Position numbers and translations under genes: made by a program
Notes under the pieces: model-generated
The model's database searches: none
What the model was told of the DNA's origin: nothing
The model's input: only the letters and a program-made list of their open reading frames with translations
Part shown: piece after piece, positions 41,461 through 43,216 of the stretch
Position numbering within the stretch: the first letter of the stretch is position 1
Layout of the letters: each line of letters starts with the position of its first letter
Assembly: GCF_030013205.1 (NCBI RefSeq)
Contig: NZ_CP122648.1
DNA from: Escherichia coli
GTDB lineage: Bacteria > Pseudomonadota > Gammaproteobacteria > Enterobacterales > Enterobacteriaceae
Length of the DNA stretch: 64,000 nt
Reading direction: 5' to 3' (one strand)

Positions 41461-41721
41461 GCACCGCGATAGTCAATGAGACTGGGCATCTCGTAATCTA
41501 TGGCAAACATCACTTCAGTTCTTTCTCATCGGGTGATGAAAACGCACTTCAGTCTGAAAGGAATATGAAAATGAGATCAACAGACACTCTATTTTATGAC
41601 TCTGGGTAAAATGGATTGAGTAAGCGATATTAGACTGGCCCCCTGAATCTCCAGACAACCAGTATCACTTAAATAAGTGATAGTCTTAATACTAGTTTTT
41701 AGACTAGTCATTGGAGAACAG

Positions 41722-42087
41722 ATGATTGATGTCTTAGGGCCGGAGAAACGCAGACGGCGTACCACACAGGAAAAGATCGCAATTGTTCAGCAGAGCTTTG
41801 AACCGGGGATGACGGTCTCCCTCGTTGCCCGGCAACATGGTGTAGCAGCCAGCCAGTTATTTCTCTGGCGTAAGCAATACCAGGAAGGAAGTCTTACTGC
41901 TGTCGCCGCCGGAGAACAGGTTGTTCCTGCCTCTGAACTTGCTGCCGCCATGAAGCAGATTAAAGAACTCCAGCGCCTGCTCGGCAAGAAAACGATGGAA
42001 AATGAACTCCTCAAAGAAGCCGTTGAATATGGACGGGCAAAAAAGTGGATAGCGCACGCGCCCTTATTGCCCGGGGATGGGGAGTAA
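41722..42087 (+). CDS. insC: IS2 OrfA (InsC)
   Basis: Starts [26 protein letters not shown]..., canonical InsC. Confidence 0.9.
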
Positions 42088-42950
42088 GCTTAGTCAGCCG
42101 TTGTCTCCGGGTGTCGCGTGCGCAGTTGCACGTCATTCTCAGACGAACCGATGACTGGATGGATGGCCGCCGCAGTCGTCACACTGATGATACGGATGTG
42201 CTTCTCCGTATACACCATGTTATCGGAGAGCTGCCCACGTATGGTTATCGTCGGGTATGGGCGCTGCTTCGCAGACAGGCAGAACTTGATGGTATGCCTG
42301 CGATCAATGCCAAACGTGTTTACCGGATCATGCGCCAGAATGCGCTGTTGCTTGAGCGAAAACCTGCTGTACCGCCATCGAAACGGGCACATACAGGCAG
42401 AGTGGCCGTGAAAGAAAGCAATCAGCGATGGTGCTCTGACGGGTTCGAGTTCTGCTGTGATAACGGAGAGAGACTGCGTGTCACGTTCGCGCTGGACTGC
42501 TGTGATCGTGAGGCACTGCACTGGGCGGTGACTACCGGCGGCTTCAACAGTGAAACAGTACAGGACGTCATGCTGGGAGCGGTGGAACGCCGCTTCGGCA
42601 ACGATCTTCCGTCGTCTCCAGTGGAGTGGCTGACGGATAATGGTTCATGCTACCGGGCTAATGAAACACGCCAGTTCGCCCGGATGTTGGGACTTGAACC
42701 GAAGAACACGGCGGTGCGGAGTCCGGAGAGTAACGGAATAGCAGAGAGCTTCGTGAAAACGATAAAGCGTGACTACATCAGTATCATGCCCAAACCAGAC
42801 GGGTTAACGGCAGCAAAGAACCTTGCAGAGGCGTTCGAGCATTATAACGAATGGCATCCGCATAGTGCGCTGGGTTATCGCTCGCCACGGGAATATCTGC
42901 GGCAGCGGGCCTGTAATGGGTTAAGTGATAACAGATGTCTGGAAATATAG
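42045..42950 (+). CDS. insD: IS2 OrfB transposase (InsD)
   Basis: 301-aa ORF with DDE-type transposase sequence, overlapping insC in the -1 frame. Confidence 0.9.
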
Positions 42951-43216
42951 GGGCAAATCCAGATATAGCTTACGAAAATTCAAATCAATTAAACATCAGC
43001 AGAGATTTTATACTCAGGTATTTAATCTGGCCCTCTGTTTATTTAAATAATGTGGAAAGAGATTTTTCACAGGAGATATTATACAAAAAATATAAAATAC
43101 AGCTACCGGTTGCCAAAGACACTATAAGCCTGGCAAAAAAATATTACACAACATAAATGCTAATTGTTTATGCGGGCTTTGTATTGCTTTCTGTATCCTA
43201 CAAATGAGTGAAATTT

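Follow-up and report, generated by a model that had tools for sequence, protein, structure and literature searches.

An IS2 insertion at a recurrently used site in the nanC-fimB intergenic region of Escherichia coli and its probable effect on the nanCMS leader

The spacer that separates nanC from fimB in Escherichia coli holds regulatory sites for both neighbours, and an insertion sequence within it raises the question of whether expression of nanCMS, of fimB or of both is altered. Such an insertion, an intact IS2, is present in the window analyzed here, a stretch of 64,000 nucleotides of E. coli DNA. The explanation that agrees best with the evidence as a whole, and which we consider probable rather than assured, is that a simple IS2 insertion at a target hot spot interrupts the nanCMS leader and would damp expression of these genes, the control of fimB being unchanged.

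The element is a standard IS2 (IS3 family). The features by which the IS2 group is recognized were all found, namely a length of ~1.33 kb, inverted repeats of ~41-42 bp with TA/TG...CA ends, a two-ORF layout with the A6G motif and a 5-bp target duplication. It begins with TAGACTGG... and ends with ...CAAATCCA, and the segment 41626-42966 reads GATAT, then TAGACTGGCCCC...GGGGCAAATCCA, then GATAT. The terminal inverted repeats are imperfect, with arms detected at 41620-41672 and 42921-42973 when the palindromic flank is included, and a search of the window for a second IS2 end recovered only those of this copy. Compared with IS2A of K-12 MG1655 (381260-382590) there are 4 nucleotide differences, and the two proteins, InsC (121 aa) and InsD (301 aa), do not differ from InsC1 and InsD1 of K-12, which bears out the first-pass annotation of an intact insC/insD element. 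Both copies have in common the 1331-bp length, InsC/InsD, the A6G motif, imperfect ends and a 5-bp duplication, and they differ in location alone, the window copy being in the nanC-fimB spacer, which is empty in K-12. The intact ORFs and ends suggest that the element may be competent for transposition. IS2 is already annotated in RefSeq, with the label 'programmed frameshift' from PGAP.

Alignment to the reverse-complemented 1455-bp nanC-fimB spacer of K-12 showed a single GATAT at the empty site, with both flanks otherwise collinear and no other rearrangement, evidencing a simple insertion with 5-bp target duplication, as had been proposed from the direct GATAT repeats; the distances from IS2 to nanC and to the fimB start (Table 1) were likewise as first described. 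The insertion point is the centre of the palindrome GTAAGC-GATATA-GCTTAC. Base composition changes abruptly at the borders of the element, from a GC content of 31-38% in the spacer to 53% in IS2, and the nanC-fimB spacer has been listed as H-NS bound (PMC3946193). A search of the spacer, the leader and IS2 against Rfam returned no RNA family. On either side, fimB, fimE, fimA, fimI, fimC, fimD, fimF, fimG and fimH as well as nanC, nanM and nanS are all intact ORFs in the window. Two apparent defects were rejected: a dead fim operon, since the fimC frameshift annotated in strain K_EC180 is absent from the window and from strain ETEC4067 and fimBEAICDFGH is intact, and a truncated nanS, since the full 326-aa ORF is present.

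Table 1. Features of the nanC-fimB region in the window (positions are those of the window).
Feature	Position	Strand	Remarks
fimB, 200 aa, intact	39825..40427	-	ATG 40427, 1203 bp from IS2 left end
SlyA operator O_SA1 (TTAGCATGATAA)	40865..40876	-	match to PMC3173223; anchors fimB start at ~40682-40698
NagC operator O_NC2	41167..41189	.	about -470 to -507 from fimB start; site sequence from PMC3098098
nan promoter-operator cassette, 77 bp	41384..41460	+	common to nanX and nanA; putative NanR/CRP-controlled nanC promoter site
NanR operator O_NR (GGTATA-aca-GGTATA-aa-GGT)	41441..41460	+	identical to K-12 nanC operator; Dam GATC 41436-41439 just upstream
Target palindrome GTAAGC-GATATA-GCTTAC	left arm GTAAGC 41620..41625; right arm 42968-42973	.	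inverted-repeat search
Target-site duplication GATAT (5 bp), left copy	41626..41630	.	direct repeat
IS2, intact, 1331 bp	41631..42961	+	same orientation as nanC; sequence alignment
IS2 left inverted repeat (IRL)	41631..41672	+	includes UCUCCA; inverted-repeat search
insC (orfA), 121 aa	41722..42087	+	Pfam HTH_Tnp_1
A6G programmed -1 frameshift motif (slippery site)	42039..42045	+	joins overlapping insC/insD
insD (orfB), 301 aa	42045..42950	+	Pfam rve integrase core; also rve_3, HTH_21
IS2 right inverted repeat (IRR)	42920..42961	+	contains outward-facing -35-like TGGAAA at 42940-42945
Target-site duplication GATAT (5 bp), right copy	42962..42966	.	direct repeat
nanC upstream/leader remnant, 250 bp	42967..43216	+	between right duplication and nanC
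nanC, 238 aa, intact	43217..43933	+	ATG 43217, 255 bp past IS2 end
nanM, 368 aa, intact	43953..45059	+	ORF
nanS, 326 aa, intact ORF	45124..46104	+	annotated by PGAP as a fragment only

The exact left and right junctions of the window occur in 7 of 5426 complete E. coli genomes, all of them pig isolates: K_EC180 (Korea) and the pig ETEC strains ETEC4067, ETEC4069, ETEC4070, ETEC4071, ETEC4079 and ETEC1748. The window is 100% identical over 12.6 kb to ETEC4067 (Belgium, pig faeces) and 99.92% identical, with 10 indels, to K_EC180. The spacer was found in 5103 genomes and runs without interruption around the insertion site in 5040, among them strains 89-3156 and FJ_Ec_21, whose empty alleles are 100% identical to the window over 600 bp. 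Because identical empty alleles exist and the occupied form occurs in a single clonal group of pig ETEC only (the ETEC4067 relatives and K_EC180), the insertion is probably recent, in agreement with the initial reading, and probably passed on clonally; the perfect duplication and the canonical transposase, together with the identical empty sites, support such an event. It can be regarded as an ordinary insertion polymorphism.

The same position has been hit by IS2 more than once. Junction queries with IS2 in either orientation were used, and exact junctions were mapped in 20 fetched loci in addition to the window (21); positions in this paragraph are K-12 reference coordinates, in which the nanC ATG is 2059. 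All 20 of the other mapped insertions are flanked by direct repeats of ~5 bp. Two of them, in TOK-001 (human, Japan; + orientation) and GPEC1176 (chicken, USA; - orientation), have the duplication ATATA and lie 1 bp from the window site, so that three independent insertions, in both orientations, fall within 1 bp there. Further recurrent sites are 1750-54 (duplication GAGAT), occupied in Eco_23-2667 (+) and WS4437A-1 (-); 1960-64 (GACAC), occupied in the NDM2 group (-, with an IS2 99.5% identical to the window copy) and in M10 (-, a 95.7% subtype); positions 1971-77 (CCTGG / TGGCA), occupied in 40EC (-) and ECONIH5 (-); and, inside nanC, 2513-17 (GTTGG), occupied in LR536430 (+) and EC12 (-). 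Recurrent sites were thus hit in both orientations and by different IS2 subtypes. Single events were located in the upstream region (1927-31, 1938-42 and 2017-21), in the nanC coding sequence (2095-99, 2340-44, 2466-70 and 2519-23, plus about three estimated from record spans) and in the fimB regulatory region (1177-81 and 1196-1200). This gives about 23, and at least that number, of independent IS2 events across ~1.4 kb of spacer and nanC, with 6 pairs of events within 1 bp of each other vs 0.53 expected (P = 8e-5). The orientations are balanced, at 12+/11- for the whole set and 5+/7- for the insertions that separate the operator from the nanC ATG, and the density of insertions inside the nanC coding sequence is comparable to that of the spacer. 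A bias toward the + orientation in the first junction query was discarded as an artefact of query design, the inverted-IS2 query having found equally many - insertions.

IS2 thus has several hot spots in this region to which it has inserted repeatedly, the window site among them. Recurrence at exact sites, balanced orientation and comparable density in the nanC coding sequence argue for target preference over selection for a regulatory outcome, and a preference of IS2 for targets in a dispensable locus fits better than selected rewiring. The 12+/11- distribution in particular is not what selection for an outward promoter, which depends on orientation, would be expected to leave. Insertion sequence hot regions exist in H-NS-silenced, AT-rich regulatory DNA at bgl and flhDC, where insertions are selected because they activate the adjacent gene, and IS2 shows a regional preference in phage P1. 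These regions resemble the nanC locus in receiving recurrent independent hits, in both orientations, within a short AT-rich regulatory region. Unlike bgl and flhDC, the nanC locus is hit just as frequently in the coding sequence, a pattern suggestive of tolerance or of loss of function. An IS2 insertion in nanC was also fixed during long-term stationary-phase laboratory evolution (PMC7858067). The nanC leader and gene might alternatively be a selected target, in which recurrent hits in unrelated isolates from pig, human, chicken, dog and mouse silence or rewire the NanC porin-NanM-NanS module under a pressure (e.g., phage, colicin or immune) acting on NanC. We consider this reading unlikely; if it were true, read-through from the nan promoter, induced by sialic acid, in + alleles would make expression of the IS2 transposase respond to a host inflammation signal.

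With regard to fimB, the SlyA operators are located 194-167 bp upstream of its transcription start, with those bound by NanR and NagC farther out, from about 760 to 470 bp (McVicker et al., PMC3173223). Measured from the start estimated by means of O_SA1, O_NR is placed at about -745 to -780 and, together with O_NC2, agrees with the published distances (PMC3173223). The first nucleotide of IS2 falls at about -935 to -950, ~170 bp farther out than any known operator, so that O_NR, O_NC1 and O_NC2 are all on the fimB side of the element and keep their native spacing to fimB, as do the SlyA sites. Hence IS2 does not lie between the distal operators and the fimB promoter, and the proposal that it cuts fimB off from its distal sialic-acid and GlcNAc sites does not hold. 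Since the known fimB operators keep their native spacing, the control of FimB switching by sialic acid and GlcNAc is expected to be unchanged, contrary to the suggestion that FimB-driven phase switching might be altered, and an effect on fimB would need an uncharacterised long-range mechanism. One such mechanism would be that the GC-rich IS2 acts as a chromatin or topology insulator, breaking an H-NS filament or changing the coupling between divergent transcription units, and in this way alters fimB and type 1 fimbrial phase switching. The H-NS binding of the spacer, the repression of fimB by H-NS (PMC3173223), the composition step at the IS2 borders and the intact fim operon of the strain are compatible with this. 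The characterised H-NS and SlyA sites, however, are within ~200 bp of the fimB promoter and at least roughly 750 bp from IS2, all known distal operators remain at their native distances, and the literature examined gives no hint of cis elements beyond O_NR, making an insulator effect very improbable. The insertion cannot be assumed to perturb the sialic-acid control of type 1 fimbrial switching, the known fimB operators being untouched.

For nanCMS the location of the promoter relative to IS2 is the central issue. NanR binds the nanC/fimB spacer (PMC5934670), and the tandem GGTATA operator GGTATAacaGGTATAaaGGTgca at 41441-41463 is identical to that of K-12. It lies beyond IS2 as seen from nanC, and IS2 does separate nanCMS from its NanR operator, as the first-pass annotation stated; promoter and operators are not all contained in the 255 bp between IS2 and nanC, the operator being on the far side of the element. 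The upstream regions of nanC and K-12 nanX (yjhB) share a 77-bp ungapped block (84% identity, E = 5e-21) made up of ~54 bp upstream of the operator, which include the CRP-like half-site TTTGTGACA, the GATC and the GGTATA repeats, and the similarity ends just past the operator. The same layout in the same register is found at nanA, where the whole promoter must fit within the 121-bp nanR-nanA spacer, and at nanC, nanX and nanA alike the cassette is oriented toward the regulated genes. According to Horne et al. (PMC8012715), the NanR operator is part of the promoter region and follows the site at which the polymerase binds. As the operator forms the downstream end of a conserved cassette facing nanC, the NanR-controlled nanC promoter is most likely at about 41385-41460, which would place IS2 inside the transcribed leader, and transcription from it probably starts at about 41435-41460. 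The distance from operator to ATG is ~412 bp in nanX and ~421 bp in nanC, suggesting that long leaders of about 410-420 bp are common to both operons.

Published wording on the nanC transcription start is conflicting or imprecise (PMC3658417, PMC8012715), and it leaves room for a promoter on the nanC side of the operator. On that basis the nanC core promoter could reside in the 250 bp that remain next to nanC, in which case the NanR, NagC and CRP sites would have been pushed 1.3 kb away and nanCMS would be uncoupled, being either constitutive or driven by a hybrid promoter; uncoupling of nanC from NanR was among the outcomes first envisaged. An RpoD-holoenzyme SELEX peak near nanC (PMC3946193) would be accommodated by such an arrangement. 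So would two weak promoter-like matches, one of them TGGAAA-18-TATTAT on the + strand at 43053-43082, between IS2 and nanC, and the other formed by the IRR TGGAAA, 18 bp and TATAGC, as well as the observation that the right ends of IS3-family elements provide a -35 to the promoter at the minicircle junction (PMC12095673). For nanC and fimB, Shimada (2014) gave hexamers that map to the wrong spacer ends for their genes; these were taken only as two holoenzyme peaks. Consensus scans of the occupied and empty alleles did not place the promoter, as matches were no more frequent than in shuffled sequence (3 found vs 2.8 expected), and no clear -35/-10 consensus was detected inside the cassette. Against uncoupling, NanR is a repressor whose operator is downstream of the polymerase-binding site in its targets (PMC8012715), and sequence conservation in nanC, nanX and nanA runs upstream of the operator, as a promoter located there would produce. 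In addition, the IS2 right end alone is promoter-inactive (PMC12095673), and the 5+/7- orientation of the insertions between operator and ATG is a misfit with selection for an outward promoter. Uncoupling thus appears unlikely, and the position of the cassette predicts polarity with residual NanR-dependent expression instead.

Based on this evidence, the following sequence of events can be proposed for the interrupted leader. IS2 inserted into the centre of the palindrome, in an AT-rich, H-NS-bound spacer, ~170 bp downstream of the NanR operator, and would interrupt a nanCMS leader of ~440 nt about 175-195 nt past the predicted start. Transcripts controlled by NanR, CRP and NagC would then have to run through IS2, 1.3 kb in sense, before reaching nanC. 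In the read-through RNA the UCUCCA of IRL may pair with the insC Shine-Dalgarno UGGAGA and sequester the ribosome-binding site, leaving a long, poorly translated stretch exposed to Rho. Pairing of this sort between IRL and the ribosome-binding site of read-through RNA is a known type of self-protection in insertion sequences. Folding of the read-through transcript does pair IRL with the insC ribosome-binding site, with a z-score of -1.2 that is not significant. The predicted outcome is a reduced, polar expression of the Neu5Ac-inducible nanC, nanM and nanS in which the residual expression would still depend on NanR, the IS2 right end adding at most a weak constitutive contribution. The element is known and the regulatory spacer has been studied closely, but the allele is new (neither it nor the hot spot was found among titles and abstracts of the three papers mentioning both IS2 and nanC), and the mechanism would be classical, a polar insertion in an operon leader. 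Titles cited in PMC12095673 indicate that polar IS2 insertions are relieved by rho mutations. In the gal operon mutants with Rho-dependent polarity IS2 likewise follows a regulated promoter/operator and precedes the first structural gene, so that lower downstream expression would be expected; unlike in gal, polarity at nanCMS is a prediction, the nanC leader is unusually long and its start is deduced from cassette homology.

The insertion could also be a neutral passenger, in which efficient sense read-through of IS2 leaves the regulation and level of nanCMS little changed and the allele persists by clonal descent only. A scan of 41200-43300 for intrinsic terminators predicted none, IS2 lies in sense, its long translated ORFs stopping 11 bp short of the end of the element, and nanC, nanM and nanS are still intact, without decay after the insertion. 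Cells that have OmpF and OmpC, moreover, can grow on Neu5Ac without NanC (PMC3658417). Nevertheless, IS2 insertions are classically polar, to judge from the titles cited in PMC12095673, occlusion of the insC ribosome-binding site, as predicted for read-through RNA, would give Rho access to a long run without translation, and the intactness of the ORFs may merely reflect a recent event. We therefore regard a neutral passenger as improbable and favour the interrupted leader with damped nanCMS expression. The dispensability of NanC in the presence of OmpF and OmpC and the requirement of NanS for O-acetylated sialic acids (PMC3658417) imply that any phenotype would be conditional.

The suggestion that IS2 creates an outward hybrid promoter for nanCMS found little favour in the sequence at the junction. 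The best candidate combines the IRR TGGAAA (42940-45) with TATAGC in the flank at a spacing of 18 bp; it matches the consensus at 8 of 12 positions, and its -10, in AT-rich flank, at 4 of 6, without the final conserved T. This combination was not called by the consensus scan, which detected no hybrid promoter across the junction of IS2 and its flank. Right ends of IS3-family elements do supply the -35 of the minicircle junction promoter, and a 150-bp IS2 right end gave no detectable activity when assayed as a promoter with a reporter (PMC12095673). Hybrid promoters made by insertion sequences, among those cited in PMC12095673 (IS2 upstream of ampC; IS1, IS257 and IS256), likewise have an outward -35-like hexamer abutting an AT-rich flank; unlike them, the junction at nanC offers a 4/6 -10 without the final T and an 18-bp spacing, and there is no orientation bias among the natural insertions. 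A strong hybrid outward promoter is thus unlikely.

If transcription of the leader proceeds as proposed, the module formed by the NanC porin, the NanM mutarotase and the NanS esterase would be handicapped in the pig ETEC lineage and in at least 12 other lineages with IS2 between the operator and nanC, and the reduced nanCMS output could affect the use of O-acetylated sialic acids in the gut. The recurrence of IS2 at exact sites, in both orientations and at small palindromes, provides a handle for studying target choice by this element. In the same manner, the 77-bp nan cassette and the ~410-420 bp leaders of nanC and nanX offer a handle on why the accessory nan operons have such long leaders.

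IS2 has hit the same few positions in the nanC-fimB region repeatedly and independently; the insertions occur in either orientation and involve more than one IS2 subtype. The target of the window copy is the centre of a palindrome (GTAAGC-GATATA-GCTTAC), and the sites at K-12 reference positions 1960-77 fall inside an inverted repeat, TTGCCA...TGGCAA. The recurrent positions may reflect a structural target preference of IS2.

In strains 3CM (locus L018), HCP8S3_I1 (L025) and MSB1_1D (L026), IS2 is located between the SlyA sites and the NagC operator O_NC2, at K-12 reference positions 1177-1200. 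Unlike the window allele, these insertions do separate fimB from the NanR and NagC operators. An effect on FimB-driven phase switching had been proposed as one possibility for the window insertion in the first-pass annotation; the alleles of these three strains would be the natural variants relevant to altered switching. The entire fim-nan junction is IS-rich in many lineages, and in several strains IS2 upstream of nanC is accompanied by IS1-mediated loss of some or all of fimB-fimD (TOK-001, L004; WS4437A-1, L013; NDM2, L015; ECONIH5, L017).

Sequence alignment revealed a 77-bp promoter-operator cassette common to nanC and nanX (84% identity, E=5e-21), and the region upstream of nanA displays the same layout. 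In nanC and nanX alike the operator lies ~410-420 bp upstream of the start codon, which implies that both accessory nan operons would have unusually long leaders.

Features of the fim-nan region. In K-12 reference positions the nanC ATG is at 2059; L numbers denote comparison loci.
Feature	Position	Strand	Remark
fimS (fim switch)	window 38390-38704		9-bp repeats at 38390 and 38696
131-aa ORF	window 40687-41082	+	upstream region of fimB
nan cassette, nanC	window 41384-41460
nan cassette, nanX	K-12 upstream, L028:167-243
nan cassette, nanA	K-12 upstream, L003:2575-2720	-
Recurrent IS2 sites	window 41620-41630 and 42962-42973; K-12 reference 1750-54, 1960-64, 1971-77, 2513-17
73-aa ORF	window 42935-43156	+	begins in IS2 right repeat, extends into nanC leader
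Promoter-like match	window 43089-43116	-	TTGGCA-16-TATATT (10/12), strong; conserved in K-12

PGAP labels the 73-aa ORF a hypothetical protein (WP_192297456.1); Pfam gives no match for it, and the ORF is probably a junction artefact. The promoter-like hexamer pair, assigned to fimB in a previous study (Shimada 2014), has its back to nanC and is now directed into the right end of IS2, antisense to insD.

The 131-aa ORF, also without a Pfam match, may be a chance ORF, putatively connected with two 1-bp indels that distinguish the region from K-12. Within fimS, TTGAGA-N17-TATGAT reads toward fimE; judged against the published fimA promoter, the switch is presumably in the phase-OFF orientation in the window assembly.

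In the pig strains ETEC4067 (L021 10016-10360) and K_EC180 (L001 9016-9360), the PGAP entry for nanS is a partial pseudogene of 345 bp, although an uninterrupted NanS ORF of 326 aa is present (window 45124-46104). K_EC180 also has a frameshift in fimC and differs from the window by 10 indels; these differences resemble assembly errors.

Directly downstream of nanS, the K_EC180 annotation shows an island remnant (window about 46100-52000 and 51600-59600 for the whole region) with genes for an HNH endonuclease, a phosphorothioation-dependent restriction enzyme fragment, JAB, antirestriction, DUF932 and DUF905 proteins, together with IS66 and IS3 fragments; it is followed by the fecIRABCDE operon and then by IS30 and an AbiJ-like gene.
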